Shown here one piece after another: positions 22,591 through 37,359 of a stretch of 64,000 bases of DNA (position 1 is its first letter; each line of letters opens with the position of its first letter). Where the stretch lies: positions 23,809 to 87,808 of the IMG/VR virus record IMGVR_UViG_3300034356_001231. The stretch is one strand, 5' to 3'. The notes under the pieces were generated by a model. The model searched no databases and was not told the DNA's origin. It saw nothing but the letters and a program-made list of their open reading frames with translations. Origin of the DNA: a virus. The position numbers and the translations under genes are program-made.

Positions 22591-23081
22591 TTGACTCCAC
22601 CTTTATTATTTTTATTCCTTATAATTTCTAATTGTTCCGCCGTAAGAATCTTCAATGCTTCTTTAGTGCGCACAATATTATATTTATAATAATTAGAAAC
22701 TAAGGTTTGGAGTTCTTCTTTCTTCTTTCTGGATTTCTTTTCCTCTTCGGTTTCTTTGATGCCTTTCATCTTTTTCTTACGAATTGAATAATAAAGATAA
22801 TCGTAATGCATCTGATCTGTCACGTTATAATGACAATTCATTTCGTTGGCGTAGAGGATTGTTTCTCGATAATTCGATAAGACGTTATTAGTTCTCCATT
22901 GACTATAATCCATATCAATGTCAACTGGGGTTTTACCAGAGGTAATTGAATTTTCATACCGCCAATCATATCTTTCTTTCTTGGTTTCTATAGAATGTTT
23001 TGCCCAATTGCCAAAGAATCCAACAGCTTCTTTTTCAGGGGTTCTCTCCTCCAATAATACATTAAGAAACTTAGTAGCCAT
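22587..23081 (-). CDS. gp62: Clamp loader small subunit gp62
   Basis: N..LS.Y.ETILYANEMN, QMHYDYL..SIRK; synteny 45-44-62-regA. Confidence 0.85.
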   Translation of the reverse strand: MATKFLNVLLEERTPEKEAVGFFGNWAKHSIETKKERYDWRYENSITSGKTPVDIDMDYSQWRTNNVLSNYRETILYANEMNCHYNVTDQMHYDYLYYSIRKKKMKGIKETEEEKKSRKKKEELQTLVSNYYKYNIVRTKEALKILTAEQLEIIRNKNNKGGVK

Positions 23082-24034
23082 TACACAAACTCACAATCAA
23101 TCATTACCTGAACCAGGAATGCCATGAAATTAATTTCTGCATTGGCAGCAAATGCATTTTGATATTGGTATCTAGCAATAAGTAATACTAGAACAGGAGC
23201 CGAGTTCTTAGTACAAATGTCAGATGACAATTCATAGAACTGATTGTAAAGATAGTTAACATCAGTGTCTAAATTATTCTTAACCCATTTACGGATCTCT
23301 GTATAGTTTTGCTGCTTCAGTAGAGCAATAAGATCCTTGATTGAAGCCTCTGTCATATTCGCTAGAATACCAGAATCAATCTTACCCGTTGCTGAATAAC
23401 GCTGAAGCTCATTAAGAACACGGCGCCAATCTGGAAAATGTTTATTGATTACTTCAGCAACAACAGCCTTATCGTATTCAATCTTTTCGTTTTCCAGAAT
23501 AAAAGTAACACGTTTGAAGAACTGCGTAGCAAGTTTGGCCATGGCCTTTTTGCTAATTTTAAAATCAATTACTGAACATCTTGAATGTAACGGCTCAATG
23601 ATGCGGTTTTTGAAATTACAGGTGAGAATGAAGCCGCAATTCCTCGAGAATTCCTCCATAAAATTTCGAAGTGCGGGTTGAGTAGAATTGGCATTAAGAT
23701 AGTCCGCTTCATCAAGGATGACATATTTCCTTCCACCCGAAAGTGACACTGATGAGGCAAAGTTGAGAATTTCATTTCTAAGCGTGTCGATATTTCCATT
23801 CATAGATCCATTAATGACGATATAATCACAACCAAGTTGTTCAAGCATAGCACGTGCTACGGTCGTCTTTCCGACACCTGCTGTTCCTGCTAGAATTAGA
23901 TTAGGGATATTCTTTTGTTCAACAAACTGTTGAAATGTTTGTTTAAGATCGCAAGGAAGAATAGTTTCTTCAATAGTTTTTGGGCGATACTTTTCAGTCC
24001 AGATAAAGTGTTCATCCATGTCAAAACTCTCCAT
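23081..24034 (-). CDS. gp44: Clamp loader large subunit gp44
   Basis: WTEKYRP, GVGKTT, ILDEADY, LHSRC. Confidence 0.95.
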   Translation of the reverse strand: MESFDMDEHFIWTEKYRPKTIEETILPCDLKQTFQQFVEQKNIPNLILAGTAGVGKTTVARAMLEQLGCDYIVINGSMNGNIDTLRNEILNFASSVSLSGGRKYVILDEADYLNANSTQPALRNFMEEFSRNCGFILTCNFKNRIIEPLHSRCSVIDFKISKKAMAKLATQFFKRVTFILENEKIEYDKAVVAEVINKHFPDWRRVLNELQRYSATGKIDSGILANMTEASIKDLIALLKQQNYTEIRKWVKNNLDTDVNYLYNQFYELSSDICTKNSAPVLVLLIARYQYQNAFAANAEINFMAFLVQVMIDCEFV

Positions 24035-24104: not shown

Positions 24105-24623
24105 ATGATTATATATAAAATCACCAACCTTATCAATGGTAAATTTTACGTAGGTAAGTCCACAAAAACTACCGAAGAAAGATTTAAGCGTCATTATTAC
24201 AATCACAAATCTGGTAACACCTATCTCTATAAGTCGATGAGAAAACATGGCTTCGATAATTTTGTTATTGAAACAATAGAAGAAACCACATATATCGACG
24301 AAAGAGAAAAGTTCTGGATTTCAGAACTGGCGCCACATTACAATATGACAAAAGGAGGAGATGGCGGTGATACTTCTAGCTCTCCAAATTTTATCGAAGG
24401 CATAAAGAAAAGACCGCCACCACCTCCCACTTATGGTATGCTCGGAAAGAAACAATCTGATAAGTTTTTTGAAGCTATCAGAAAATCCAATAGTCGCCCA
24501 GTTATGTGCGAAGGAAAAAGATATGCTTCTATCAACGAAGCTCAAGAAGCATATCCTGGTATTTCTATTCGCAAAAGATTAGACAATCCAAAGTATTCCG
24601 AGTTTTATAGATTAGAAAGTTGA
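24105..24623 (+). CDS. Free-standing GIY-YIG homing endonuclease, antisense to its neighbours
   Basis: IIYKITNLINGKFYVGKS, RF..H, EKFWI, YNMTKGGDG. Confidence 0.88.
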   Translation: MIIYKITNLINGKFYVGKSTKTTEERFKRHYYNHKSGNTYLYKSMRKHGFDNFVIETIEETTYIDEREKFWISELAPHYNMTKGGDGGDTSSSPNFIEGIKKRPPPPPTYGMLGKKQSDKFFEAIRKSNSRPVMCEGKRYASINEAQEAYPGISIRKRLDNPKYSEFYRLES

Positions 24624-25265
24624 GCTTGATTCAACTGCAATATAATATTCTACATCATCACGCACAAAATGCGAAATGCCCTTTGATGAGATATTAACAT
24701 CATAATCGCCAGGAATAATCTTAATATTCTCAGCCTTAAAAATTGCCTTGAACGCCTTATCAGTCTCGCCAATCTGGATAGAATAAACGTCGCCAGAAGG
24801 ATTCTTAGAATCAGCAGCCTGAAGATATAGATTCTTACCGTCGCCCATGACAACAATCTCCGGTAGAGCAAGAATGCCAGAAGCCTTCTCAACATCCCGT
24901 AGATTATCATTAGTTAAACGGAAAGTAACGTCAACCGAAGGGAGATTGATTTCTCTGTCCGGAGCCTTTGTTACCGTGGTTTCGTCAGCATAAACATAAT
25001 GAGTCTTACGATTGTTGTCAGAAATATCAACAGACTTATCTCCAAACTTAAAATCTGGATCAGTAAAAGTGCTAACGATCGAGATGAAACGATCGAGATT
25101 ATAGATTGCAAATCGCTTATCAAAATCTGTCTTTACCTTTGCCTTTGCCATGATTGTCTTGGTTGGCGAAATAGTCTTAAGAACATTACCTTCCTGGATA
25201 ACAATGGAAGGATTAATCTTAGCAAAATTCTTAAGAACATTAACTGTATCTGTATCAATCTTCAT
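24612..25265 (-). CDS. gp45: Sliding clamp gp45
   Basis: LKNFAKINPSI, FAIYNL, IPGDYDV, YYIAVE. Confidence 0.95.
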   Translation of the reverse strand: MKIDTDTVNVLKNFAKINPSIVIQEGNVLKTISPTKTIMAKAKVKTDFDKRFAIYNLDRFISIVSTFTDPDFKFGDKSVDISDNNRKTHYVYADETTVTKAPDREINLPSVDVTFRLTNDNLRDVEKASGILALPEIVVMGDGKNLYLQAADSKNPSGDVYSIQIGETDKAFKAIFKAENIKIIPGDYDVNISSKGISHFVRDDVEYYIAVESSSTF

Positions 25266-25281
25266 AATGTATTTTCTCCTA

Positions 25282-26154
25282 TCACTTGTTCTTTGATTTC
25301 ATCATTTTCTTTGACTTCAATGCTCCAGGATCAGCAGTAGCTGAAGCACCAATCGAAGCAAGGTCAGCAAGCGAACCACCAAATATGTAAGTTCCAACAT
25401 GCTGCATCTTCATCCATGGACAGAACCATGTCTTAAGATCAATTGCCTGCGCCTTTTGACAGAACCAATAATCTTCTGAAAGATAACGCTTAGATACCGG
25501 ATCAATTTCTGCCTGGAAGAACTGAAGAATCTCACGGCTACCATCAAAATGCTCAGTGCGAACATGATCAGGCTTGTAAGAATACTGATCCTTATATGCG
25601 TCATAGAACTTAGTCATGGCCTTCTTAGAAACCATCATGAATCCAGTTCCGATCTCGAGAACTTCAACTGGCTCTGCGATTGGAATAGAAGTCTGATGAC
25701 CCTTGGGATTGAAAACATAATCACCAACGAAACGCTCTAGAACGTTTGGATCATCATCAGCAACACCCTTATCTACAGCGTGCTTAATCTTTTCCCAAGA
25801 GATACACTTCTTAGGATATGGGCCACCAATAATGTCATACTTATCTTCTTCAAGAGCCTGCAGAGACATTAGAGCAATAACATCCTGTGGATTGAATCCG
25901 ATGTCAGAATCAATAAACATTAGATGCTGTGATTCAGAACGCATAAACTCATCACAACAATAGTTACGAGCTCGAGTAATTAGCGATTCATTGAACAAAT
26001 AATAAAACTGAAGAGGAATACCATACTGCGTACATAGAGCAGAAAGATCTGCACACGAACGAGCAAACATACCAGCGCACTGTCCGCCATACATTGGTGT
26101 GGCGACAAATAACTTGCGCTCTCTTAGTTTTTCAATTGGGATCTTAATTTCCAT
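25282..26154 (-). CDS. GT-A fold glycosyltransferase-like protein
   Basis: FVATPMYGG, ESLITRARN, HLMFIDSD (DxD), GTGFM, YLSEDYWFC. Confidence 0.75.
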   Translation of the reverse strand: MEIKIPIEKLRERKLFVATPMYGGQCAGMFARSCADLSALCTQYGIPLQFYYLFNESLITRARNYCCDEFMRSESQHLMFIDSDIGFNPQDVIALMSLQALEEDKYDIIGGPYPKKCISWEKIKHAVDKGVADDDPNVLERFVGDYVFNPKGHQTSIPIAEPVEVLEIGTGFMMVSKKAMTKFYDAYKDQYSYKPDHVRTEHFDGSREILQFFQAEIDPVSKRYLSEDYWFCQKAQAIDLKTWFCPWMKMQHVGTYIFGGSLADLASIGASATADPGALKSKKMMKSKNK

Positions 26155-26166
26155 AATATACCTTTC

Positions 26167-26355
26167 TTATGCTGTAATAGTATTATGATATTTACAAGTG
26201 TTACAATGAACTTTTTTTCTAGGAGGGTTTGATAGTAAGACGATGCCAGGTTCAGACAAAACTAATTCATCACCACAAGCTGGACACTGAATGCCAGTGC
26301 CATGCCTTTCTCTCAATAATCTTTTCTCTTCTTCGTATTCCTCAATAGTCTTCAT
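26167..26355 (-). CDS. Zn-ribbon small protein
   Basis: CPAC...CNTC. Confidence 0.7.
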   Translation of the reverse strand: MKTIEEYEEEKRLLRERHGTGIQCPACGDELVLSEPGIVLLSNPPRKKVHCNTCKYHNTITA

Positions 26356-26699
26356 TTCCTATCCTTATAATGATCTGCATAAAGCATCATTATAACATAA
26401 TGAAGAACTTTTAGCAAGTCATCTTTATTGCTGCCATGCTTTTTACCATAGCGCCAAAGATATTTGATAGCAGTGTTTCGGAAGGTAGGCATAGAATCAC
26501 CAAGAGCAAGCCACACATCGAAACATTCTATATTCTCTTCTTCAGTCATATAATGCTGCCCATATGTCTTATCTATATAGGCGTGGAAATCAGCAATAAT
26601 CTGATCTTCCATATATTTGTATTTAGGCGCAACCTTTCCAGCAACATCCAATTTATAACTAACACCTGATGGTATTTCACTATATAACCTGCTCATCAT
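26352..26699 (-). CDS. DUF3310 family protein (T7 gp1.7/SaV-like, nucleotide-modification associated)
   Basis: TYGQHY, AIKYLWRYGKK, DLLKVLHY. Confidence 0.78.
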   Translation of the reverse strand: MMSRLYSEIPSGVSYKLDVAGKVAPKYKYMEDQIIADFHAYIDKTYGQHYMTEEENIECFDVWLALGDSMPTFRNTAIKYLWRYGKKHGSNKDDLLKVLHYVIMMLYADHYKDRK

Positions 26700-27232
26700 G
26701 CCTCCAAATATTTCATAATGTAATCCACAATAATCTTCTGATCTTCTTTGTTATTGTTTTTAAATTTAACAGTGTTAAACATAAGAGTCATATTCGTTAG
26801 AATATTTGCAATCTTAGTTTCTCTTCCCTGTAACCAAGTTTCGTTTTGGTTACTTCCACGCTCCTTATAACGTTCTTGCCGAACAGCTTTATCGGTTTCT
26901 AGATAAATTATATCAGTGTTATAATTGTTCACACAATGTTCTAAGAACGTTGATGTGAAAAGACGGTCGCCCTCAAAAAGAACAACCGAATCTTTATGCA
27001 AACTTGCTAAGAATTTAACTGCTTCTGGCTGAACTGCCATAGACATACGATCTGTTCCAGAGAAAGTTTCACCTTCGTCATACTTACCCAAAATATAATT
27101 ACAATCATATTGAAGATACGGAACAAGTTTTACTTCATCATAAACTTTTATCCAATTAAATTTCGAAATAATTTCTTTCATTAAAGTAGATTTGCCAGCA
27201 CCTGGCTCGCCACCAATCGCAAATACAAGCAT
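26696..27232 (-). CDS. P-loop nucleotide/DNA-base kinase associated with aGPT-Pplase
   Basis: GGEPGAGKST, GTDRMSMAVQ, FEGDRL; abuts the aGPT-Pplase2 gene. Confidence 0.78.
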   Translation of the reverse strand: MLVFAIGGEPGAGKSTLMKEIISKFNWIKVYDEVKLVPYLQYDCNYILGKYDEGETFSGTDRMSMAVQPEAVKFLASLHKDSVVLFEGDRLFTSTFLEHCVNNYNTDIIYLETDKAVRQERYKERGSNQNETWLQGRETKIANILTNMTLMFNTVKFKNNNKEDQKIIVDYIMKYLEA

Positions 27233-28230
27233 TATGTAAACCTTTCAAGTCCGACCTTTTCAGGCTCAACAAACAAACCTGTGCAGTCTAGAATACCATT
27301 CTCACTATACAAAGCCATTTTACTATTGTTTATGTGATTAGTCAATAGTTTATTATTTAGAGTTTCATTACGAGCGTCCCACATTGGTTGCCAATCAATA
27401 CCATCCCATCCATCTTTTTCACACTGAGTAATTTCTTCAGCCTGACGATCTAGATAATAACCAAGATATCGACCATGTTTTACTCTGAATAACTTTTTAA
27501 AAGAACAGAGACATGTTTCCATATCAAAATAATCAGTGTCAGGAAAGTCTTTCTTAACTTCTTCTAGAATTAGATACGCCTGTGCTTCCAGATAAGCAAG
27601 TTGACTGACATCTAATTTTTTATCAATCCATTCAGGCTTACCAAGAGCGAAGCATAAACCATTGCGGTGAGATCTTGAGCCAGAATAATCTTCAAGCATT
27701 AGACTGCTCGGTTCAATTGGTAAACCGCAACATTGCTTTAATGTTTGCATGTAGAACCAAGTTGAATATCTACCAAACTTATGAAAGTTTCCCTTGACCT
27801 CGTCCCATAGTAAACTGAAACTTAATTTAGGGCTACCCGGAGCAAGGAAATCTTTAAACGCTTCTGCTTGCGATCTATCACCAACCCAGTTTTTATAAGA
27901 TTCAAACTGAGCAGGTAGATGGCCTTTGTTCCATTTAGTATCTGTTTGATACCGTAGACGTTTATAATTCTTACTGTTCCAATCTTTCAAACGATCAAGA
28001 CCAACAAGTTCCATATCAGGAAACTCGTTCCAGATAACCCACGTTGTCGGAAAATGATACGTTGTACCGTAGATCCAAGCAATCCAGAGTTTCTGTTCTC
28101 TGTTATGTTCGAACCTACGGAACAAGTAATTGGTCATAAAGATAGCGGGGTCGCAATCCTTAATGGAAAGCGACCACCGATACCAGTTTATAAAATCTTG
28201 CTTACGCTGCTTTACGATTTGCTGGTTCAC
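27232..28230 (-). CDS. aGPT-Pplase clade 2 / amino acid:DNA transferase
   Basis: RLRYQTDTKW, FGRYSTWFY, METCLCSFKK, GRYLGYYLDRQAEEI. Confidence 0.78.
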   Translation of the reverse strand: MNQQIVKQRKQDFINWYRWSLSIKDCDPAIFMTNYLFRRFEHNREQKLWIAWIYGTTYHFPTTWVIWNEFPDMELVGLDRLKDWNSKNYKRLRYQTDTKWNKGHLPAQFESYKNWVGDRSQAEAFKDFLAPGSPKLSFSLLWDEVKGNFHKFGRYSTWFYMQTLKQCCGLPIEPSSLMLEDYSGSRSHRNGLCFALGKPEWIDKKLDVSQLAYLEAQAYLILEEVKKDFPDTDYFDMETCLCSFKKLFRVKHGRYLGYYLDRQAEEITQCEKDGWDGIDWQPMWDARNETLNNKLLTNHINNSKMALYSENGILDCTGLFVEPEKVGLERFT

Positions 28231-29542
28231 TTATTACCTTATTTGTCCTGGTGTCCCAGAAGCAAGGAAGAAATTCCAACTCGATCCATTCAAGTTTAGC
28301 AATGGCCAAACATTCACGGACTTCTTGCTCAAGAACATCTCTCTCAAGATATTCTTCAACATTCTTAAAGTGAATGAATATTTTGCCTTTCGGATTATTT
28401 CTTGCCGAGGGACGATTCTTTGTCTTTTGGCGCAAACTATTTACCACACCACCAATACCCGAGTGAATGACAGTGCTTATAGACTGACTGATACAACCAG
28501 CATAAGGATTTTCTGCAAGGTAAGAATTTACCTTCTTCTTCAGATCCTTATCTACCCAGTTATAGAAATTATACTTGCTGTTAATTTCGTTAGTGAAATA
28601 ACGATCTTTAGCAGCGCTGATCAAACTCTTTAGAGACTTCTCAGAGAATTCTCCAAGATAAAGATCAAATACAATTTCTTCCATTTCATCTGAATCAAAA
28701 GGAATTCCATCGACATAAAGAGCTTCAATCTTGCGCTTCACATCTTCCTTAGAATTACCTTCCTTGACAACTGGCTCGTGATTCATAAGAACCCCGAAAT
28801 GATCCATAATAGAAGGATCATCAAGGAATTCGTCAGAATTAATATAAATTACGGGCACAGTTGCCCATTTAGCTTCAATTGCTGCACTGAGCGTATGATT
28901 ACCATCAAGAATCTTTTTCTTGCCGTCACGGAAAACAACAACCACAATAGGATTGATATGCTGATTGGCACGCTCTGGATCGTTCATACGATCTACAAGT
29001 TTATTTACATGATGATTATGACGTAGCTTAAAACGAATTTGAATTCGTTCGAAATTCGCCAACTCTCCAACGTAAACATTATGGACTTCATAATGTTTCT
29101 TGATTTTGTTTTCTTTTACCTTATTTGCAATCGATCGAGCAAGACGAATATGCTCCTTATACGTAGATCTAGCTTTTTCGATAATGAAATCTGTAGAAAT
29201 ACATCGGCTAACGATCTCTCGCATTTTATCTGTGACGTGCGAAAGACTACATCCAGCACCACCACCATTTGTCTTATTATACATATCTGGGTTATTACGA
29301 GCATCTAATACATCAAGCATATAATGCTCGAGCGAGATACACTGTTCTAATGTGCCTTCAAAAAATTCTACTCGACGAAGAAACCCTTTGTTCCAGGCAT
29401 CATTAAACGCTGGATCAGTAGAGCTCGAAGTGTAATAGTCTGAAACATTCTTATCAGAAAGTTTATGATAACCTACATAGACAATCTTAGTAGTTTCACG
29501 ATTATACCAAAGATAACAAATAGCCTGTTTTGCAGTTTTCAT
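28202..29542 (-). CDS. GIY-YIG-like N-terminal domain fused to a ParB/Srx-like domain
   Basis: CYLWYN...YVGYH, YTSS, LEH..L, YN.TNGGG; then PIVVV...ILDGNHT. Confidence 0.65.
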   Translation of the reverse strand: MKTAKQAICYLWYNRETTKIVYVGYHKLSDKNVSDYYTSSSTDPAFNDAWNKGFLRRVEFFEGTLEQCISLEHYMLDVLDARNNPDMYNKTNGGGAGCSLSHVTDKMREIVSRCISTDFIIEKARSTYKEHIRLARSIANKVKENKIKKHYEVHNVYVGELANFERIQIRFKLRHNHHVNKLVDRMNDPERANQHINPIVVVVFRDGKKKILDGNHTLSAAIEAKWATVPVIYINSDEFLDDPSIMDHFGVLMNHEPVVKEGNSKEDVKRKIEALYVDGIPFDSDEMEEIVFDLYLGEFSEKSLKSLISAAKDRYFTNEINSKYNFYNWVDKDLKKKVNSYLAENPYAGCISQSISTVIHSGIGGVVNSLRQKTKNRPSARNNPKGKIFIHFKNVEEYLERDVLEQEVRECLAIAKLEWIELEFLPCFWDTRTNKVISEPANRKAA

Positions 29543-29603
29543 AGGTCACTCCTTTTTGGACCGTTTCAAAATATTGGGCTTCCTTTACATCACCCAATAA
29601 ACA

Positions 29604-29633
29604 TATACTACCACTATTCTGCGAAAATGTCAA
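29604..29633 (-). promoter_or_regulatory. Early promoter for the GIY-YIG/ParB gene
   Basis: TTGACA-17 nt-TAGTAT on the - strand; AAGGAG RBS downstream. Confidence 0.55.
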
Positions 29634-30150
29634 GTCCTTTATATTCGACGAAGAGCTCTACGCAGCCTCCCTTTCCTTTTTTCGTTGCAGCCTTATAGAT
29701 TATATCGTCGAGAGAGTAATCAATCTTCTCGAATTCCGAAGAATTAATCTTAAACATAGCCAATAGACATCCACTTTTCTGTTTACCTACGAATTGTATG
29801 CCTAGTTTTTTGTAGAACGGTATAGCTGGAATTTCCGAAGAAACTCTGAAATAATGTGCGCTCGAATAGAAAGCGTAATACAAAGAATGATTGCATAGCT
29901 TTCTAGCAACTCCTTTGTTCCTATGCGCATAAAAAGTATGAAGCAATTGAAGGTTAGCCGTATAAGGTTTACGTTTCGAAATAGTTGTGAGAATGGCTCC
30001 GGCAAGGTCATCGCCTTCCCAGAGCCCAACAACTTCATTCCATTTGTCTAGCATGTCGCATTTAGCAACAAATGTTTTGGCAAACTTATCTTCTTTACGA
30101 TCGCTAATGTTTGCTATAAATTGTTCTTTTGTAACTGTTTTAAACTGCAA
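29614..30150 (-). CDS. GNAT acetyltransferase
   Basis: LLHTFYAHRNKGVARKL (motif A), AIPFYKKLG; probable TTG start at 30150 (frame open to 30225). Confidence 0.8.
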   Translation of the reverse strand: MQFKTVTKEQFIANISDRKEDKFAKTFVAKCDMLDKWNEVVGLWEGDDLAGAILTTISKRKPYTANLQLLHTFYAHRNKGVARKLCNHSLYYAFYSSAHYFRVSSEIPAIPFYKKLGIQFVGKQKSGCLLAMFKINSSEFEKIDYSLDDIIYKAATKKGKGGCVELFVEYKGLDIFAE

Positions 30151-31012
30151 TGAACTCTCGGGATTTCTTTCCTCGCTCTTTTCCATATTTTGTTTTCTCC
30201 CATGACGTATAAATCTCGTGATCATATTTTAGTTCTGGAAATTTATAATCGCCTTCAAGAAGAATTTGTAGAACATCTGGGCCATTATTGAGCGCAGCGT
30301 CTATAAACGCTTCAACAAATCTAAATGAATCTTCTAACTCTCTACGGTCAAAAGAATTACGGAAACAACGGAACTCAATAGTTCCTGTGTGTTTCATACA
30401 ATATGTATTAATTGCATAACGGAAAGGACGACCCATAGAAACGCCATCTTTACCTGCGCAATGTAACTTAATAAAGTGTTCAAAGTCGGTTGTAAGATTA
30501 ATAATGTTGTTGCACATATAATCAGGCATCAACCTACCACAATCTAACTTCAAATAAGTCTTTGCTGTTTTTGTAGAAGCCATATCTGGGTGCAATCTAA
30601 ATGCATGGATACGATCAACTACTACATGTTGATTTTCTTTGATGTATGCAACCAACCGTTTGAGCGCATCAACATCTTCTTTTAGACCTGGAACATATAC
30701 ATGAACATGATTATGAGAAATACAATTACTAGTAGGATTGTTACCGTGCGATTTATAAAAATCAAGAATCTCAAAAATTCTGTCAACCTGTTCCTTCCAA
30801 GTTTTCGTTGGTCTTACATTAATTTCGCCGCCAAATGGTGGTTCAATACCAAGAGGATCACAAGCGATACCACGATAAGGTGGATTGAGATTCACTACGT
30901 CAGTTTCTGAAAATTCCCATTTACCTAAATGTTCTGGAAGTGGGAGACGACGATCAACATCCCCCACTTCCATTTCAAACCCCCATGTGAAGTCTTTTTT
31001 GTTATATGTCAT
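30140..31012 (-). CDS. Amidoligase (COOH-NH2 ligase type 2)
   Basis: TWGFEME, GGEIN..P, HNHVHV, RYAIN, GTIEFRCF. Confidence 0.8.
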   Translation of the reverse strand: MTYNKKDFTWGFEMEVGDVDRRLPLPEHLGKWEFSETDVVNLNPPYRGIACDPLGIEPPFGGEINVRPTKTWKEQVDRIFEILDFYKSHGNNPTSNCISHNHVHVYVPGLKEDVDALKRLVAYIKENQHVVVDRIHAFRLHPDMASTKTAKTYLKLDCGRLMPDYMCNNIINLTTDFEHFIKLHCAGKDGVSMGRPFRYAINTYCMKHTGTIEFRCFRNSFDRRELEDSFRFVEAFIDAALNNGPDVLQILLEGDYKFPELKYDHEIYTSWEKTKYGKERGKKSREFIAV

Positions 31013-31692
31013 TGCAAATCCTCAATAGCAGGAAACTCATACTTATTATAGCTTACAATTTTGAAATTTTCAACAATAAAATGTTCATACATAGAAGCAG
31101 TAACTTGAACGTCAAGACCGCTTCTTTTCAGAATATCTCTGGTAGAAGCAAATATAATACCGTTCTCATTGTAAGAATAATGAAGTGGTCGAGATTCATT
31201 CCGGAATGCGGTAAGAACTTTATCCTTGTCAATAGTGCAAACAGACATGCTTGCAGGATGAAACTTATGTAAAGGAACTTCACCAGTTTCTAAACAACGT
31301 AAAATTAATTCGCTATCGTTCTTTGTAATTACATCATATCCAAAAGTTTGTTTCCATTGTTCTGGATCTTCTTGAGAAATGACTCCATTGTGGACAATAG
31401 AAAGTTCTTCAGTAGCCATTGGTTGATTGTAAGCAAGATCGCTCGTTGAGTAACGAACATGGCCAATGCAATAAAGATTGCCATCTTCGTTTACCCAACT
31501 GGGAATATCCTGATTGTTGATAAAGGTACAGGCGTTCACAGGTTCTTTGATAGTATGAACCTTACTGTTCTTTACATATGATACTCCTGTAGCGTGCTTG
31601 CCACGAATCATTGATTGAATAAAAAGCCGACGAACAAGTTCGAATTCGTGCTCGCTCGGTTTCTTTATAGCTATTCCTAATACTCCACACAT
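31009..31692 (-). CDS. Class II (Ntn) glutamine amidotransferase
   Basis: MCGVLG, RGKHATG, GHVRYST, NQP, HNGVI, NDSE. Confidence 0.9.
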   Translation of the reverse strand: MCGVLGIAIKKPSEHEFELVRRLFIQSMIRGKHATGVSYVKNSKVHTIKEPVNACTFINNQDIPSWVNEDGNLYCIGHVRYSTSDLAYNQPMATEELSIVHNGVISQEDPEQWKQTFGYDVITKNDSELILRCLETGEVPLHKFHPASMSVCTIDKDKVLTAFRNESRPLHYSYNENGIIFASTRDILKRSGLDVQVTASMYEHFIVENFKIVSYNKYEFPAIEDLQ

Positions 31693-33065
31693 TAGAAAAA
31701 TGATTCCAATGAAGCCACTTCGTCTTTGCCGTAAGGATCTTTCATTCCATGAGCGTGAAGATAATCATACCATTCTTGCTCTTCCCACATTCCAGGAGAA
31801 ACACCATTCCACAATGGACGATGTAATGGATGATCTTTATTCATACGACGTTCTTCCACAAATTGCTTACGCAGCAATTCATAGTCATATGATTTCAACT
31901 CAAGCATTTTCTCACGGAAATAGCAGACTACAGATATGCGCTCACAAGAAGGATCATCAGGCTTATTAAGCACGATAGGAGTATTACCATGGATAATCTC
32001 ATGGTTGTTAACGAGTAACAAATCGCCAGGACGCACATTAACAGCGATACGATACTCAGGAAATATAAGATAACCACCAGTATATTCTCCAGAACCAAGA
32101 ACAAGTAGATTAGATAAACCAGAATCAAGATCACCAGCATCTCGATGACATGCTGTCCGAAAAGTCTTGTTCACAGTCAATGTAGTAAACACTGTTTCAG
32201 GAACAAGAAACCTTGGATCAAGTTTATCTGCTGCAGCTTTCTGATTGCCCCAACGCCAAGGAAGTAATTCTCTAAAACCTTTATTCAGTGTTTGGAGAAA
32301 TGGATACGCCTTTGAAAACAATTCTGGATGGTTTTCAGTATATGCAGTAGCACGACCATACGGAATACGTGGGTATCGATCGTACCAACCAGCAACGCCC
32401 GAAAACACTGACTTTGCATAGTTAGTAGTTGATGCCCACTTTTCAGCAACCTTTCTCGCCTCTGCACGCACTTCTTCGTTTGGTTTATTAGATAAACCAT
32501 CAACCCATTTATCAAACCAACCATGATATTCCGGATACACTTTCTGGACTTCTGAACGTAACCATACAGTACCACGAGTTTCATCTGCAGGTTTAAATTT
32601 AGGATCTGCATACTTAGCGCGAATAGATGCAACTGAATTGTCATCAATTACCTTTGCACCATCATCCATAAGAAAGTCTAAAATCTCCTGTTGATAAGGA
32701 GTAACCCAATCACGACCACCACGACCTTCACATGCTAGCATGTCACCACGAGGACCAGCAGCAAGACCACGATTTTGAGATTCAGTAGCTGCTTGCCTTA
32801 GACCTTCATATGCCTGATCGCATTCTTCTTTAGTGAAGTAGTTCTTACGAAACTTAAATGCAATACGTAATTCATCGTTGCCTTTATCGCAATCTTCGCA
32901 TTCTTTAGTCCCACAATCTGCTTTGGTAAGCGGATCACATAGCGGTGGCATATAACAATCAGTATCTTCTTCAATCAAAATATCATAATGACTCTCGTCA
33001 ACGAAAGTGCCAAGAAGATGTTCACAATCATGTTTTTGACGAGCAACAATACGTCTTACCATCAC
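31692..33065 (-). CDS. TET/JBP-family 2OG-Fe(II) dioxygenase
   Basis: FTTLTVN, TACHRDAGD (HxD), GGYL.FP, PGDLLL, HEIIHGNTPI, RISVVCYFRE. Confidence 0.82.
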   Translation of the reverse strand: MMVRRIVARQKHDCEHLLGTFVDESHYDILIEEDTDCYMPPLCDPLTKADCGTKECEDCDKGNDELRIAFKFRKNYFTKEECDQAYEGLRQAATESQNRGLAAGPRGDMLACEGRGGRDWVTPYQQEILDFLMDDGAKVIDDNSVASIRAKYADPKFKPADETRGTVWLRSEVQKVYPEYHGWFDKWVDGLSNKPNEEVRAEARKVAEKWASTTNYAKSVFSGVAGWYDRYPRIPYGRATAYTENHPELFSKAYPFLQTLNKGFRELLPWRWGNQKAAADKLDPRFLVPETVFTTLTVNKTFRTACHRDAGDLDSGLSNLLVLGSGEYTGGYLIFPEYRIAVNVRPGDLLLVNNHEIIHGNTPIVLNKPDDPSCERISVVCYFREKMLELKSYDYELLRKQFVEERRMNKDHPLHRPLWNGVSPGMWEEQEWYDYLHAHGMKDPYGKDEVASLESFF

Positions 33066-33442
33066 TTATCTCCGTATAGAACACTTTTAATATCTGGAGC
33101 AGTCCAGCCTTCGGGTTTCAAAATCTTACCATCATCACGACGAACTACTTTACCGTCTACTAGTTTTTCCATGTTAGATCTATGGACTTCGTTGAAGACT
33201 CTGTCCAATGGAATCCCATAAGATGCAGCAGTGCCACAAACAATGTAAATAATATCAGCAAGCTCTTTGGCGACATTCTCTAGATCATCCTTATCTTCAC
33301 CATCAAAATATTCTTCTACTTCTTCTTTTAAAAGTTTACGACGCAATACACGTTCATTCTCATCAGGAAATTCAGGCACTTCGCTGACATTCTGACCGAC
33401 TGCTGTTTGAAACTTTTTTACTTCTTGAAACATATTAGACAT
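33062..33442 (-). CDS. MazG-like all-alpha NTP pyrophosphatase
   Basis: LKEEVEE, KELADIIY, EVHRSNM.K, RDDGKILKP. Confidence 0.85.
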   Translation of the reverse strand: MSNMFQEVKKFQTAVGQNVSEVPEFPDENERVLRRKLLKEEVEEYFDGEDKDDLENVAKELADIIYIVCGTAASYGIPLDRVFNEVHRSNMEKLVDGKVVRRDDGKILKPEGWTAPDIKSVLYGDK

Positions 33443-33998
33443 AGATCCACTCCGGAGGGTTACGTTTTTTCCATTTATGAAGATGTGTTTTACCCATCTT
33501 ATAATAGTTACGATAATTTATTATTGGGTCAGAGTCAATAATATATTCTGGCGCCATACACGAAGGCATGGTAGTCATATCATACTCTTGTAAATTTTTA
33601 GGTGGAGAAGCCAACGTCGCTGATATTTCTCCATAACACTTATGCGTCTTTTCATAACGATAGGTATACTCTTGCATCAACGCAAAGAAATGATCTACCA
33701 ACCAATTGTAATTCTCGACGCTACTGCGAGCCCATACAGCAGATGGGTGATTGATGTGCGTAGCTGAATATATAATTTGTTCGCGCGAGTCATTTAGTAA
33801 CCACCATTTTTTCTTGCGTGTTTTAATTTTACCATCTTCCTGCTCAACCTGCACCTCGAGTTGAATTTCTCGACCGTCTAGTAAACGATGTGCTGTAGAA
33901 AGCAACTGAGCGGATTCGAGGATCATCTTAACAACATGACGATCTACCATCCACTCGGCTGCTTCCACGGGGTTATCAGAAATATAGAAAATATTCAT
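33435..33998 (-). CDS. Pyrimidine-dimer glycosylase-like (DenV-related) protein
   Basis: MNIFY, DRHVVKMILESAQLLSTAH, HINHPS, YRNYY. Confidence 0.75.
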   Translation of the reverse strand: MNIFYISDNPVEAAEWMVDRHVVKMILESAQLLSTAHRLLDGREIQLEVQVEQEDGKIKTRKKKWWLLNDSREQIIYSATHINHPSAVWARSSVENYNWLVDHFFALMQEYTYRYEKTHKCYGEISATLASPPKNLQEYDMTTMPSCMAPEYIIDSDPIINYRNYYKMGKTHLHKWKKRNPPEWIYV

Positions 33999-34108
33999 TT
34001 TTTTCTCATATACCAATAAACAAATATTGCGAACACAATTAGTATAAACCATTGTTCATAATATTCAAGCATTAAATTCAGTTTATAGAAATTAAAAAAA
34101 TGATTCAT
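33995..34108 (-). CDS. 37-aa single-TM peptide (not in the ORF track)
   Basis: ATGA overlaps at both ends; ...WFILIVFAIFVYWYMRKK*. Confidence 0.55.
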   Translation of the reverse strand: MNHFFNFYKLNLMLEYYEQWFILIVFAIFVYWYMRKK

Positions 34109-34572
34109 TGTTTCCACTTTCTCATTGCTTGGTCTCGATGAAACTTGTTAGCTCTATCATAAAAACGAATGCCTTGCAAGTGATCATATTCGTGTTGAAA
34201 TACTCTAGCAGACATACCTATAAACTGTTTTGTCAAACTATCTCCATTAGGAGTATTGAATCGAACACGAACTACTGTTGGTCTTTTAATTTTAACTACT
34301 AATCCAGGATAAGATAAACACCCTTCCTCGAGAACTACGTCGTCTTTAGATTGACTAACTATCTTAGGATTATAACAAACAAAATTTTCCGGAGCTCCAC
34401 GCATAGCGAAAATACGATAAGGCACTCCTACTTGGTTTGCTGCCACTCCAAGACCATTGTTCTCATACATAAATTTGATGAGACTCTGCGCGAAATCAAT
34501 CGGATCGAAGGGAGGATCTTTAAAATCGAATTCTTCACATTGTTCTAAAAGATATCTATCATCTAGTTTCAT
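34105..34572 (-). CDS. def: Peptide deformylase
   Basis: GLGVAANQVG, EGCLS, QHEYDHL; TTGACT-17-TATAAT promoter just upstream. Confidence 0.93.
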   Translation of the reverse strand: MKLDDRYLLEQCEEFDFKDPPFDPIDFAQSLIKFMYENNGLGVAANQVGVPYRIFAMRGAPENFVCYNPKIVSQSKDDVVLEEGCLSYPGLVVKIKRPTVVRVRFNTPNGDSLTKQFIGMSARVFQHEYDHLQGIRFYDRANKFHRDQAMRKWKQ

Positions 34573-34603: not shown

Positions 34604-36304
34604 TTATTGTATCTGAGAGAAATTTTTATTTTTCACGAATTTCAATACGTTATTGAACTTCTCGTTCAAATGTTCTTTGTGCGATATAATGATAATATTA
34701 CTATCTTTGGATATCTCACGAATAATATTCATAAGATAATCTGTTGCATTTTGGTCCAAAGAAGAATCGAACACTTCGTCCATTATTAAAAGATTTGTGC
34801 TTATTGAGTTACGAAGTTTGGCAATTGCTCTCCATGTAAACAATAAAGCCAAATCAATTTTCTGTTTCTCTCCTTCAGAGAAAGATGCGTATGAAAAATC
34901 ATCTCTATATCTAGACTTGATTGTTTCGTTAAAATTTTCATCGAGTTCAAACGAAACAAAAAAATCCATAGAAGAAAGGTATTTATTAATCAATTTGTTA
35001 ATGACAGGAATATACTGCCTAATAATTTTAGATTTAATTCCTGTATCTTTTAATAAAACTGTTGCTGCGCTCAAAACTTCTTTTTCTTCGCTTAATTCAT
35101 TATATCTAGTTTCTAACGCATTCAATTCTTTTTCGTAGTCTACTATTTTAACATCAACCACTTCATTTTTATCTTTTAGATTTTCTATCTCTTGATTCAA
35201 TTGTTCGATATATTTGTTTAAAGAATTTATTGTTGTTTTGTATTCAACTCTTTCCATTTCAAATTTCTGAATATCATTGTTCATATTCATAATTTGTTTT
35301 AGGCGGTTATTAGCAGTTTCATACTCTAAAGATAATAACTTCAACCCTTCTTCAGTATCTTTGATCTGAGAAGTTTTTTCCTCTATAGTTTTGTCTCTAA
35401 AATTTTTATCAATATTTTGTTTACATGTGGGGCAATTTTCGTGATTACTAAAGAAAACAACATCTTGATTTAGAATGGCTACTTTTGCTTCTATCTGATG
35501 ACGAAGTTTAGAGAGTTTTTCTAGTTTTCTAGAAACGCTATCATTGTCGCCAATATCTTTCTTACAAATTTCTATTTGTTTTGTTATTCTATCAATTTTA
35601 TTAGTATACTCTTGGATTTTTTTATTGGTGTCTTTTATGTTTTTTTCTTTTTCCTCTACCAATTTATTATTATTAATCTGAAGTTCTTGCAAATGACTTT
35701 TAGTCAATTCAATTTTAGAGTTGACTAGTTTTTTAGAAGTATTAACTTCGTAGATATTTTCACTGTTTATAAGAACTTTATCTTTTAATATAGAATTCAT
35801 AACAGTAAAGATTTGAAGGTCTAATAGATCCTCAATAATTTCTCTACGCTGACCAGAAGACAACTGCATAAAAGGCTGAAAGGTAGCTGAACCTAGAACA
35901 ACTACCTGCGAAAAAGATTTATGATTTACTTTGATAATTTGTTTTTCTAAAAGTTCCTGGTAATCTTTCATCTCAGCGTTTTGATTTAAAAGATTACCGT
36001 TCTGATATACTTCAAAAACAGTTGGCTTTATACCACGAACAATCTTATACTCTTTAGAACCTATAGAAAATTCTATTTCTACCAAGCAGTTCTTTTGTGT
36101 GATTGAATTTACAAGTTGTGGTTTGTTTATCTTTCGGAACGGTTTACCAAAAAGACCAAAACTCAACGCATCTAGAATCGTAGACTTCCCAGCCCCATTC
36201 TGTCCAACAATGAGTGTAGTCTCTTTGCTTGCTAAATTGATTTCTGTAAAAACGTTTCCAGTCGAAAGGAAGTTCTTCCATTTTAATTTCTTAAAGTGAA
36301 TCAT
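34604..36304 (-). CDS. gp46: Recombination endonuclease subunit gp46 (SbcC-like)
   Basis: GQNGAGKST, CPTC hook, FSEGEK, MDEVFD. Confidence 0.95.
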   Translation of the reverse strand: MIHFKKLKWKNFLSTGNVFTEINLASKETTLIVGQNGAGKSTILDALSFGLFGKPFRKINKPQLVNSITQKNCLVEIEFSIGSKEYKIVRGIKPTVFEVYQNGNLLNQNAEMKDYQELLEKQIIKVNHKSFSQVVVLGSATFQPFMQLSSGQRREIIEDLLDLQIFTVMNSILKDKVLINSENIYEVNTSKKLVNSKIELTKSHLQELQINNNKLVEEKEKNIKDTNKKIQEYTNKIDRITKQIEICKKDIGDNDSVSRKLEKLSKLRHQIEAKVAILNQDVVFFSNHENCPTCKQNIDKNFRDKTIEEKTSQIKDTEEGLKLLSLEYETANNRLKQIMNMNNDIQKFEMERVEYKTTINSLNKYIEQLNQEIENLKDKNEVVDVKIVDYEKELNALETRYNELSEEKEVLSAATVLLKDTGIKSKIIRQYIPVINKLINKYLSSMDFFVSFELDENFNETIKSRYRDDFSYASFSEGEKQKIDLALLFTWRAIAKLRNSISTNLLIMDEVFDSSLDQNATDYLMNIIREISKDSNIIIISHKEHLNEKFNNVLKFVKNKNFSQIQ

Positions 36305-37359
36305 TCAATTGTCAATGCCTCATGATATAACTCTACAATTTTATTTTCTAATTTGTTCTTATCAACGCCTTTTACTTCGGCGCCAGTAATGTATTTTTTA
36401 AAAATTTCAATTGTAGATTCAGCTTCATCAATAATATCATCGTCATCTTCCAAATCAAGATTAAGATGATCTTCTACGATTTGTATGTCCACAGGATTTT
36501 GTTTTTCAATATTCTCTATAAATTTTTCAAACCAATAAGGATTATTCTTTTCAGTGATTATAATTTTAATTATCTTATTAGCAAATTGAGTATAGTCGAT
36601 TTCGGAGTCTACAAATTTAGTATCTCCGTCATTATACCAGAACTTATGAAACATCTTATACGGGTTTTCAATAAAAGTTAATTGTCTCGTTTCTGTGTCA
36701 AAGATATGAAACCCTCGAGGATCGTTATAATCAGACCAAGTATACTCTGCAGGAGAACCGAGATAATTAATATTACCACGGTTTGAACGATGATGAAAAT
36801 GCCCAGAACAAACAATATCAAACCGTCCAAAAAGTGACGGATCGTCTCCATGAGAAACGATTGATCCTTTAAACATTTCAAATCCTTCCAGTTCCAAATG
36901 ACCGAAAGCAATTTGTGCATCTGTTTCCTTAATTAGTTTGAAGGAATGCTGTTTATTGTCATCACAAATCCAAGGAATTAATAGAATCTTGGTTTCACCG
37001 AACATTACTTCGGTTGCTTTATCATAGATATTTATCTCATACTTACGAAAAAGTTCGTTAAAAGATGACACCTCATTAGTATTTTTATGATATGTGTCAT
37101 GATTGCCGAGTATCTGATGCCATTTTAATCCACGTTCAATAGCTGGTTCAATCAAATCTTTTCTTAAACGATACGCAGTATTGATGTTGATATATTTTCG
37201 GCGATCCACAATATCGCCGCAATGCACAACAGTTTTAATATTATTTTCGTCGATATATCTATAGAATACATTATCATAGAACCTTTTCATATAGTCATGA
37301 AAGACTAGAGAGTCATTACGAACACCAGCATGACTATCGGTTAAAAGAGCGATTTTCAT
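36301..37359 (-). CDS. gp47: Recombination endonuclease subunit gp47 (SbcD-like)
   Basis: DSH, GD..D, GNHD, GHLE, SGHFH. Confidence 0.95.
   Translation of the reverse strand: MKIALLTDSHAGVRNDSLVFHDYMKRFYDNVFYRYIDENNIKTVVHCGDIVDRRKYININTAYRLRKDLIEPAIERGLKWHQILGNHDTYHKNTNEVSSFNELFRKYEINIYDKATEVMFGETKILLIPWICDDNKQHSFKLIKETDAQIAFGHLELEGFEMFKGSIVSHGDDPSLFGRFDIVCSGHFHHRSNRGNINYLGSPAEYTWSDYNDPRGFHIFDTETRQLTFIENPYKMFHKFWYNDGDTKFVDSEIDYTQFANKIIKIIITEKNNPYWFEKFIENIEKQNPVDIQIVEDHLNLDLEDDDDIIDEAESTIEIFKKYITGAEVKGVDKNKLENKIVELYHEALTIE

Follow-up and report, generated by a model that had tools for sequence, protein, structure and literature searches.

A probable thymidine hypermodification locus in a freshwater T4-like phage, with a fixed TET gene and an exchangeable downstream cassette

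What base is made by a phage locus in which a TET/JBP dioxygenase gene is followed by genes for a kinase, an amino acid transferase, and enzymes of amide and acetyl chemistry? The question is raised by record IMGVR_UViG_3300034356_001231 of IMG/VR, which is 87.8 kb long with a CheckV completeness of 53%, and of which bases 23809-87808 were analysed; this whole stretch of 64,000 nucleotides is referred to as the window. The source is a T4-like phage of freshwater or lake water, and we consider it likely that the locus is a post-replicative thymidine hypermodification system. A first-pass annotation of the window had listed nine genes at 26352-33442 as one modification operon. The list itself held up in full, as all nine predicted open reading frames (ORFs) are present on the minus strand, running from 33442 to 26352 within a block of T4-type replication and recombination genes. 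In the order of transcription they are:

33062-33442, minus strand: MazG/PRA-PH-type NTP pyrophosphohydrolase, 126 aa (PF01503, E 9.5e-19; phrog_671, 3.2e-41)
31692-33065, minus strand: long-form TET/JBP 5-methylpyrimidine dioxygenase, 457 aa (PF12851, 4.6e-23; phrog_24024, 1.3e-149)
31009-31692, minus strand: class II (N-terminal nucleophile, Ntn) glutamine amidotransferase (GATase), 227 aa (GATase_6, 3.6e-12; GATase_7, 2.8e-07)
30140-31012, minus strand: probable Amidoligase_2-like (glutamine-synthetase-type) carboxylate-amine ligase, 290 aa (PF12224, E 0.053)
29614-30225, minus strand: GNAT acetyltransferase, 203 aa as listed (Acetyltransf_10, 2.3e-07; Acetyltransf_1, 5.5e-06)
28202-29542, minus strand: protein with GIY-YIG-like, ParB/sulfiredoxin-fold and C-terminal alpha/beta domains, 446 aa (AlphaFold2 (AF2) model, Foldseek, VIA-align)
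27232-28230, minus strand: amino acid:DNA transferase (AADT, formerly aGPT-Pplase2), 332 aa (ADDT PF18724, 3.5e-24)
26696-27232, minus strand: P-loop kinase (Ploopntkinase3), predicted 5-hydroxymethyluracil (5hmU)-DNA kinase, 178 aa (PF18751, 9.8e-13, 48.5 bits)
26352-26699, minus strand: DUF3310 protein, 115 aa (PF11753, 3.9e-05, 24.0 bits, exactly the cut-off; phrog_480, 1.2e-23)

These genes are tightly packed, with overlaps of 1-8 nt except for one overlap of 86 nt, a gap of 71 nt before the 446-aa gene and an overlap of 29 nt after it; beginning at a 205-aa ORF upstream of MazG, the successive spacings are -8, -4, -1, -4, -86, +71, -29, -1, -4 and -4 nt. As it is the GNAT frame that overlaps the amidoligase by 86 nt, the true GNAT start is probably later than listed, for example at the ATG at 30186. 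Seven of the nine proteins match Pfam at or above the curated cut-off, and no ORF exceeded any family cut-off in NCBIfam. Searching the 7.1-kb region by megablast against 50,697 phage records gave no match, hence the phage has no close cultured relative there. Searches of PDB sequences by phmmer returned nothing useful for the TET, the amidoligase, the AADT or the 446-aa protein, and the amidoligase family profile had 0 PDB matches.

The TET protein matches PF12851 at 81.7 bits, against a cut-off of 34.9 (84.3 bits in the genome search), and its catalytic motif consists of H307-R-D309, H359 and R376. The HxD...H...R signature claimed in the first-pass annotation is well conserved: none of H307, D309 and H359 varies among the 40 aligned relatives, and 38 of the 40 keep R376. 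The best structural match of the AF2 model (pLDDT 90.5, pTM 0.87) is human TET2 (Z 20.8, 272 residues aligned, root-mean-square deviation 4.7), followed by CMD1 (Z 19.0), NgTET1 (Z 18.2) and CcTet (Z 17.0), whereas AlkB, ALKBH3 and FTO score clearly lower (Z 12.2-13.5). The predicted fold groups with the nucleic-acid 5-methylpyrimidine dioxygenases, and not with other 2-oxoglutarate oxygenases, in keeping with the earlier proposal. Among 1.84 billion cluster representatives, relatives number 1688 at E<=1e-3 and 236 at E<=1e-30; about two dozen of the best 150 are long (430-477 aa), and most are 283-350 aa, covering residues ~200-400 at 40-45% identity. Compared with the ~300-aa phage forms, the long form has ~100 extra N-terminal and ~45 extra C-terminal residues, with 73 residues following R384 against 22-51 in 15 short (~283-349 aa) relatives. 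Long-form homologues are encoded by the cultured T4-like phages DLP6 (49.5% identity), C48C1 (45.9%) and Cr30 (45.7%), those of DLP6 and Cr30 being annotated as 'SNF2 DNA repair protein'.

Whether such an enzyme would act on thymine or on 5-methylcytosine (5mC) can be addressed through the nucleotide-metabolism genes of the genomes. The record that contains the window encodes ThyX at C1:20057-20638, a short distance upstream of the window, and, at 53% completeness, contains neither PF00303 (ThyA and the dUMP and dCMP hydroxymethylases) nor PF00145 (C5-methyltransferases). Five related records, reached through the loci described below, were also searched, among them G001, which is 162 kb long, 98% complete and carries the same cassette. 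Neither PF00303 nor PF00145 was found in any of the five (0/5 each), and ThyX was present in three of four, including G001; PF01555 was absent from G000-G003 and found only in G004, inside another cassette type. The absence of any source of 5mC, or of any pre-replicative source of 5hmU or 5-hydroxymethylcytosine (5hmC), leaves thymine in DNA as the only evident substrate, from which the TET would most likely make 5hmU after replication. The rest-of-genome check proposed with the first-pass annotation was thereby favourable, with ThyX present and no ThyA-type hydroxymethylase or C5-methyltransferase in the window's record or in the 98%-complete G001. Lee et al. 2022 argued likewise for thymine as a TET substrate (PMC8989533).

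That the TET acts instead on 5mC, and the cassette hypermodifies cytosine, as Burke et al. proposed for some kinase-containing TET contigs, seems very improbable to us. Phage TETs of clades A and B do oxidise 5mC, a 5hmC kinase has been suggested for contigs 49, 76 and 88 (PMC8256090), and the fold is unable to separate specificity for thymine from that for 5mC. However, PF00145 is missing from the window's record and five related records, one of them 98% complete, the genome has ThyX, the chemistry of AADTs and their kinases is characterised on 5hmU only (PMC8989533), and just 6% of mined 5mYOX pathways co-occur with a C5-methyltransferase (PMC13229309). The background on which the first-pass annotation drew, that characterised phage TETs oxidise 5mC, is also outdated, as phage T-dioxygenases have now been reconstituted, and clade C phage TETs oxidise thymine in vivo and in vitro (PMC13229309).

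If thymine is the substrate, the genes downstream of the TET should determine what becomes of the 5hmU, and these genes vary. A TET scan of IMG/VR gave 258 relatives, of which the best 80 loci, with TETs 63-99% identical to that of the window, were kept and searched with 17 window proteins by tblastn; counts refer to the 63 of these 80 in which the interval from TET to DUF3310, or to the 290-aa ORF beyond it, is complete, the 17 that end too early being left out. The loci share a conserved backbone of gp47, gp46, peptide deformylase, the 205-aa ORF, MazG, TET, the cassette, DUF3310, a Zn-ribbon ORF, the 290-aa ORF, gp45 and gp44. Into the cassette position fall several sets of genes. This cassette, or a reduced form of it, occurs in 20 of the 63 loci: nine have GATase, amidoligase, GNAT, AADT and kinase, seven more add the ParB-like gene, two are without a recognisable GNAT, and two have GATase, another GNAT, AADT and kinase. 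A distant AADT (22-32% identical) with a kinase is found in 18 loci; in the representatives examined the further genes differ, being an inositol-1-phosphate-synthase-like gene in L008 and L015, an N6_N4 methylase in L055, and ORFs that match nothing in Pfam in L044 and L076. Two loci have the kinase alone, and 23 carry none of the six cassette genes. Among the latter, L023 encodes a TET-associated glycosyltransferase (TAGT; PF20691, 2.2e-15), L072 and L080 have weak, sub-cut-off GT-B matches, and L029 and L046 have a single ORF in the slot of the L023 TAGT (262 and 261 aa, alike by length only).

The TET keeps a fixed place in the backbone, and the genes that follow it form an exchangeable cassette. 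A maximum-likelihood tree of 64 TET proteins, 40 of them distinct, requires at least 14 changes of cassette label; the minimum conceivable is 3, and 200 shuffles averaged 29.9, none being as low as 14. In this tree, TETs with the other AADT cassette downstream form the sister group (SH-aLRT 98) of the window's TET. MazG adjoins the TET with all cassette types, and is absent beside it in several loci, while DUF3310 stands behind every cassette type. Hence the co-occurrence in related phages that the first-pass annotation anticipated is found for part of its operon only: the TET is constant, and kinase and AADT travel as a unit with GATase, amidoligase and GNAT, whereas MazG and DUF3310, both present as described, are backbone genes independent of the cassette rather than members of a specific pathway, and the ParB-like gene is optional (7/20). 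In two loci the DUF3310 slot is filled by PF18909, the N-terminal domain of a dATP/dGTP diphosphohydrolase (L067:11528-11914 and L072:13216-13656; 1e-34 and 3.5e-29); this position is occupied by one or the other of two distinct small proteins with a link to nucleotides.

Within the cassette, the linkage between genes is strict. All 38 loci with an AADT also have the kinase, no AADT occurs without it, and the kinase occurs without an AADT in two. The AADT subtype of the window (>=50% identity) is accompanied by GATase in 20 loci and never found without it, and the distant subtype is accompanied by GATase in 0 of 18. The window's AADT matches PF18724 at 86.3 bits (cut-off 26.2), a family that also includes M6 gp51 (1.4e-46, 159.6 bits), with which it has no pairwise BLAST similarity. 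Its nearest cultured homologues are in Ackermannviridae (27-30% identity) and in Caulobacter phage Cr30 (30.7%). The taxonomy line of one of the phages with a homologue, Vibrio phage 144E46.1, reads Ackermannviridae; we take the other genera with AADT homologues, and likewise ViI, to belong to this family. With cultured relatives only 27-31% identical, and no pairwise similarity to M6 gp51, the sequence does not suffice to name the donor amino acid; nevertheless, as AADTs of Ackermannviridae, the family of ViI, are among the nearest cultured homologues, it weakly suggests a small residue, for instance Ser or Gly, linked through O or N. Because it accompanies the AADT in 38 of 38 loci, the PF18751 kinase may work like a 5-hydroxymethyldeoxyuridine (5-hmdU) DNA kinase.

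The GATase matches PF13522 at 46.9 bits (cut-off 27), begins with MCGVLG, the Ntn signature, in which the catalytic Cys follows straight after the Met, and has weak matches to the N-terminal domains of AsnB and PurF. The amidoligase call in the first-pass annotation is borne out as probable: its own match to PF12224 is below threshold, but seven of eight orthologues from related loci match this family at E<=0.1 (best 3.7e-4), and the nearest Atlas clusters by protein language model are amidoligases (score 0.96-0.98; PF12224 in 30-79% of members). By tblastn against the 50,697 phage records, a search that covered the amidoligase and not the GATase, only two distant matches were found, neither in Cr30 nor in DLP6. 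One distant cultured homologue is in Vibrio phage 2.275.O (L090, MG592671, 332-337 kb), where the gene adjoins QueF-like, QueC-like and GTP cyclohydrolase I (7-deazaguanine) genes and an Ntn 'nucleophile aminohydrolase'. The pair of amidoligase and Ntn-amidotransferase may serve several DNA-modification pathways. In two loci, L006 and L085, the TET, amidoligase, GNAT, ParB-like protein and AADT show 98-100% identity to those of the window, but the GATase shows just 63% and the kinase 83%; lake contigs of three runs also contain a diverged GATase segment, with joints at 30991/31457 and 31498/31685. Two GATase alleles, 63% identical, appear to be present side by side in a single phage population, a sign of recent recombination within the cassette on the scale of one gene.

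Such a slot, with at least 14 cassette changes, is a hot spot of gene exchange, and could in principle be permissive to GATase, amidoligase and GNAT genes that have nothing to do with DNA and instead act on a protein, a cell-wall precursor or a metabolite beside a minimal system of TET, kinase and AADT. Papers on other phages with no known DNA modification (LUZ24-like phages, phage tf) reportedly mention GATase and amidoligase genes together. We nonetheless regard this as highly improbable: GATase is with the window's AADT subtype in 20 of 20 loci and with the other in 0 of 18, the genes overlap the TET and one another by 1-4 nt, and Lee et al. saw the same domains repeatedly in contigs with kinase and AADT (PMC8989533).

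The steps of the proposed pathway, all drawn from family membership and genomic context, would then be as follows. The phage would replicate with ordinary thymine, using its own ThyX, and the long-form TET would oxidise thymine in DNA to 5hmU. The P-loop kinase would phosphorylate the hydroxymethyl group, and the AADT would replace the phosphate by an amino acid. With ATP, the amidoligase would activate the carboxylate left free on the added residue and amidate it with ammonia from the Ntn-GATase, and the amine still free would be acetylated by the GNAT. Uracil C5 would then bear an N-acetyl-aminoacyl-amide, neutral and bulky, which would shield the DNA from host nucleases. Individual steps have published counterparts: 5hmU-DNA kinase and AADT chemistry has been reconstituted for M6, ViI and PaMx11, and acetylation of a DNA-borne amine by a GNAT was demonstrated for PaMx11 gp48 (PMC8989533); ligation of an amine to a DNA-borne carboxylate was demonstrated for CmoY, with a GATase-fused version predicted (PMC12783734). 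The order of action inferred in the first-pass annotation, from TET to kinase and transferase to GATase, amidoligase and GNAT, is thus consistent with the TET fold, with ThyX in the absence of a hydroxymethylase and C5-methyltransferase, and with cassette co-occurrence, its steps being homology-based and MazG and DUF3310 lying outside the pathway.

The same genes could also be placed in another sequence, in which GATase, amidoligase and GNAT act before transfer, building an unusual amine or amino-acid donor for the AADT, such as an amino-acid amide or an N-acetylated diamine. The donors of AADTs are indeed varied (Gly, Ser and putrescine, the last transferred in PhiW-14; PMC8989533), the strict tie of this AADT subtype to GATase (20/20) is what would be expected of a donor-specific transferase, and the amidoligase homologue of Vibrio phage 2.275.O lies beside genes for a small molecule, the 7-deazaguanine precursor. 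However, the strict linkage fits tailoring after transfer equally, and the tailoring enzymes of M6, ViI and PaMx11 (a decarboxylase, a radical-SAM isomerase, an FAD lyase and an acetyltransferase) act on the DNA polymer post-transfer (PMC8989533). We therefore judge donor synthesis ahead of transfer to be unlikely, and favour tailoring of the residue once it is attached to DNA.

Several points weigh against this account of thymidine hypermodification. Firstly, every enzymatic step rests on homology and context, the order of amidation and acetylation is a guess, and so is whether they act on DNA or on a free donor. Secondly, the window's record is 53% complete; that a methyltransferase is lacking is deduced from G001, the relative with 98% completeness. 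Thirdly, M6 gp54, the 5-hmdU DNA kinase that has been characterised, belongs to PF18748 (7.7e-18), a family to which the window's kinase does not belong and which is absent from its nine matches at E<=0.01; the pairwise similarity of the two kinases is marginal (25% identity, E 0.008), and by tblastn the window's kinase had no match in M6, ViI or PhiW-14. Fourthly, the amidoligase scores 13.8 bits against PF12224, below the cut-off of 22. Fifthly, long-form TETs of 430-477 aa are without an assay in the literature consulted, the assayed ParB-independent TETs being ~290-300 aa, with C280 the last shared residue in 5mYOX176 (PMC13229309), and clade C1 TETs without their ParB are reported as inactive on 5mC and thymine in E. 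coli (PMC13229309, PMC8256090).

The last of these points turns attention to the 446-aa protein between GNAT and AADT, which the first-pass annotation had called GIY-YIG/ParB, and for which no Pfam match was better than E 0.05 and none was to GIY-YIG. Structure prediction supports the ParB part of this call, and more tentatively the GIY-YIG part. The AF2 model, built with 18 homologues, has a pLDDT of 82.9, and its top Foldseek matches are the ParB-CDP complex of B. subtilis (6sdk), Noc, and the ParB proteins of C. crescentus and M. xanthus (including 7bm8 and 7bnk). By VIA-align, residues 148-258 have the ParB/sulfiredoxin fold (PadC Z 9.1, pNOB8 ParB-N Z 8.9, sulfiredoxin Z 8.8, KorB Z 8.6), and residues 6-92 are GIY-YIG-like, matching I-TevI (Z 6.9, 79/92 aligned), the 5hmC-specific endonuclease PD-T4-3 (Z 6.2) and UvrC (Z 5.5), where both Z 6.9 and Z 5.5 are in the range rated middling. 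Y10, G24, E72, Q168, R170 and G214 are invariant in the 18 homologues, and Y22, N89, N92, N215 and H216 are kept in at least 90% of them; key residues of the N-terminal nuclease-type domain are retained in homologues down to 22% identity, the GIY-YIG catalytic Arg not being identified among the conserved positions. The ParB-like part has Q168-x-R170 and a D-G-N-H-T motif, apparently where canonical ParB has GERR. Atlas neighbours at 0.79-0.83, which are leads only, include DndB, GmrSD_N with GIY-YIG, and ParB_N clusters.

The ParB-like gene is an optional, fast-diverging passenger of the cassette. By tblastn, 7 of the 20 complete loci that carry this cassette have it and none of the 43 that carry other cassettes do, and it is the most divergent cassette gene, at a median identity of 28% against 67-82.5% for its neighbours; its GC and GC3 are not distinct from theirs. 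A remote homologue was recognised in L074 (hhalign 98.5%). The 483-494-aa protein in the same slot of L033 and L039 was considered as a homologue and is unsupported, the hhalign value for the 494-aa protein of L033 being 0.6%. A PF02195 search of the window's record and of G001-G004 revealed no other ParB. In three independent lake metagenomes, near-identical contigs run from GNAT through the ParB-like gene into AADT, hence the gene is stable in this phage population; among the joints listed for the reads and contigs of four runs, none skips it.

A modification-dependent restriction enzyme can be built from a ParB-like NTPase and a nuclease, as in GmrSD, and the GIY-YIG enzyme T4 endonuclease II attacks unmodified DNA. 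Against this background the two foremost candidates for the ParB-like protein, equally plausible and each tentative, are a nuclease that spares modified DNA and a homing endonuclease. A ParB-type activator of the TET is less likely than either, and some other function less likely still. Some clade C1 T-dioxygenases do need a co-encoded ParB-like activator, whose closest structures are also the M. xanthus and C. crescentus ParB proteins (PMC13229309). An obligatory activator was considered for this lineage and rejected, as the gene is in only 7/20 and 0/43 loci while the TET stays 63-99% identical. The predicted complex of TET and the GIY-YIG/ParB protein (score 0.01, mark 0.32) counts neither way.

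The wider setting of these genes is that of a T4-like core genome, with the following flanking features:

36301-37359, minus strand: gp47 (Metallophos, Pfam)
34604-36304, minus strand: gp46-like recombination nuclease subunit, the upstream landmark (SMC_N, 2e-16; AAA_23, 7.4e-14)
34105-34572, minus strand: peptide deformylase (PF01327, 2.1e-37)
33435-34052, minus strand: 205-aa ORF (phrog_624, 'DNA binding protein'; weak Pyr_excise, E 0.015)
26167-26355, minus strand: Zn-ribbon ORF, 62 aa, between DUF3310 and the 290-aa phrog_1574 ORF
25282-26154, minus strand: 290-aa backbone ORF (phrog_1574, 8.6e-56; weak Anp1, E 0.011)
24612-25265, minus strand: gp45 sliding clamp, the downstream landmark (gp45-slide_C, 6.7e-13)
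23081-24034, minus strand: gp44 (Gp44_lid)

The placement of the operon between genes 46 and 45 is therefore right as to the flanks and needs qualifying as to adjacency, since peptide deformylase and the 205-aa ORF lie before MazG, and the Zn-ribbon and 290-aa ORFs after DUF3310. Peptide deformylase was detected in 61 of the 80 related loci and the 205-aa ORF in 49. The 290-aa phrog_1574 ORF accompanies every cassette type, with identities of 55-100%, and was detected in all but two of the 63 complete loci (61); DLP6 and Cr30 have similarly sized ORFs at its position, matched by size and place only. If this ORF is a glycosyltransferase, 5hmU could be its substrate too. A promoter scan gave 37 sigma70-like sites against 34.5 expected, showing no enrichment, and given this the one site upstream of the ParB-like gene (TTGACA-17-TAGTAT, 29633-29605) is not callable as a promoter. 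The 7.1-kb stretch is present at 66-98% of sampled words in 24 lake or freshwater DNA metagenome runs from 24 studies of 2016-2024, all kept as contigs and four of the runs being flagged as possible sources, and there was no RNA dataset among the listed runs that contain it. In contigs of three lake runs, 614 additional letters lie between MazG and the upstream 205-aa ORF (window 33442-33470), which looks like a small inserted gene of a sister strain.

How far is such a locus new? Iyer et al. 2013 (NAR) reportedly made the first prediction of operons with TET, kinase and aGPT-Pplase, and of TAGT. The cluster architecture and its interpretation are already published. Lee et al. 2022 described metavirome contigs with kinase, aGPT-Pplase2 and amidoligase/glutaminotransferase, in one group of which TET_JBP replaces dUMP hydroxymethylase; those clusters (Fig. 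2 legend, sequences 22-25) have, like this one, kinase, AADT, amidoligase and glutaminotransferase with TET_JBP, no dUMP hydroxymethylase and no nearby 5mC source, on IMG/VR contigs, and gave rise to the same inference, that the TET makes 5hmU in situ for the adjoining enzymes (PMC8989533). They differ in being gene maps only, in which the amidoligase and GATase functions are called 'not yet known', and the present locus differs from them in a PF18751 kinase, which is not of the family of their query kinases, and in its T4-like backbone (PMC8989533). O'Toole et al. 2026 (PNAS) linked phage T-dioxygenases to GATases, P-loop kinases and AADTs, and their ParB-dependent clade C1 enzymes share with this locus a C-terminally extended TET, a ParB-fold gene in the cluster, the association with GATase, kinase and AADT, and the lack of a C5-methyltransferase (PMC13229309). 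Here, by contrast, the TET is 457 aa against ~290-300 aa in the assayed ParB-independent enzymes (PMC13229309), and the ParB-fold protein has a probable N-terminal GIY-YIG domain and DGNHT apparently in place of the canonical motif, and is inconstant among loci. Both NEB studies, by Lee et al. and O'Toole et al., mined IMG/VR, the source of this record (PMC8989533, PMC13229309), and genes for ParB, TET, aGPT-Pplase2 and kinase have been noted together in a Rhodococcus phage in culture (PMC11955845).

The systems with known products differ further. In M6, PaMx11 and ViI, which make 5-NedU, 5-AcNmdU and 5-NeOmdU, 5hmU in DNA is likewise phosphorylated, a PF18724 AADT adds an amino acid and tailoring follows, ending in PaMx11 with GNAT-type acetylation; however, a dUMP hydroxymethylase supplies their 5hmU before replication, the tailoring is done by PLP, radical-SAM or FAD enzymes with no GATase and amidoligase, and their kinase is of PF18748. 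The CmoX/CmoY carboxymethylcytosine pathway of Synechococcus phage S-B43 also uses a DNA-base carboxylate as the handle for ATP-dependent ligation of an amine, and a sister cluster has a glutamine-hydrolysing domain and predicted amidation with ammonia, but the base is cytosine, the ligase is AMP-forming rather than Amidoligase_2, and the route to the carboxylate is another (PMC12783734). Among cultured T4-like phages, Caulobacter phage Cr30 and Stenotrophomonas phage DLP6 have a long-form TET near gp46 and gp45, and differ in having no amidoligase match by tblastn. In Cr30 (L003, KF301602, 49.9-69.7 kb) the TET is accompanied by an AADT (PF18724, 1.3e-52), a kinase homologue (33.7%) and an inositol-1-phosphate-synthase-like gene, the cassette type of L008 and L015; a literature search gave no report on the DNA chemistry of Cr30 or DLP6. 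Nor did literature searches find a paper identifying the product of the GATase/amidoligase thymidine cassette, and as far as the literature searched goes, the statement of the first-pass annotation that the final base is without a chemical description stands. Also without precedent there are an assay of the long-form TET, the GIY-YIG fusion of a ParB-fold protein, and cassette swapping in a lake T4-like lineage.

Glycosyltransferase and AADT cassettes behind related TETs fit a common 5hmU intermediate, and the TET would provide a universal 5hmU 'handle' on which exchangeable cassettes act. One TET serves at least four downstream chemistries: the TET-associated glycosyltransferase, GT-B, two AADT subtypes, and this cassette. 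A fuller picture, which we put forward as a rather doubtful speculation, is of a widespread lake T4-like lineage in which the long-form TET is a universal 5hmU 'socket' for swapped cassettes, the cassette described here makes an amidated and acetylated amino-acid thymine base, and the GIY-YIG/ParB protein is a modification-sensing nuclease, like GmrSD or PD-T4-3, that destroys unmarked DNA.

The locus is a clean natural example of a published, chemically unsolved class, comprising TET, kinase, AADT, GATase/amidoligase and GNAT, in which comparative data separate the genes of the pathway from those of the backbone. In phage DNA, hypermodified thymidines give protection against restriction and CRISPR nucleases, and biotechnology can draw on them for DNA-modifying enzymes. 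As a cultured relative, Cr30 is a ready laboratory model for the core of TET, kinase and AADT. Solving the product of the full cassette would add a new base to the known set, and give a function to the GATase/amidoligase pair of phages.

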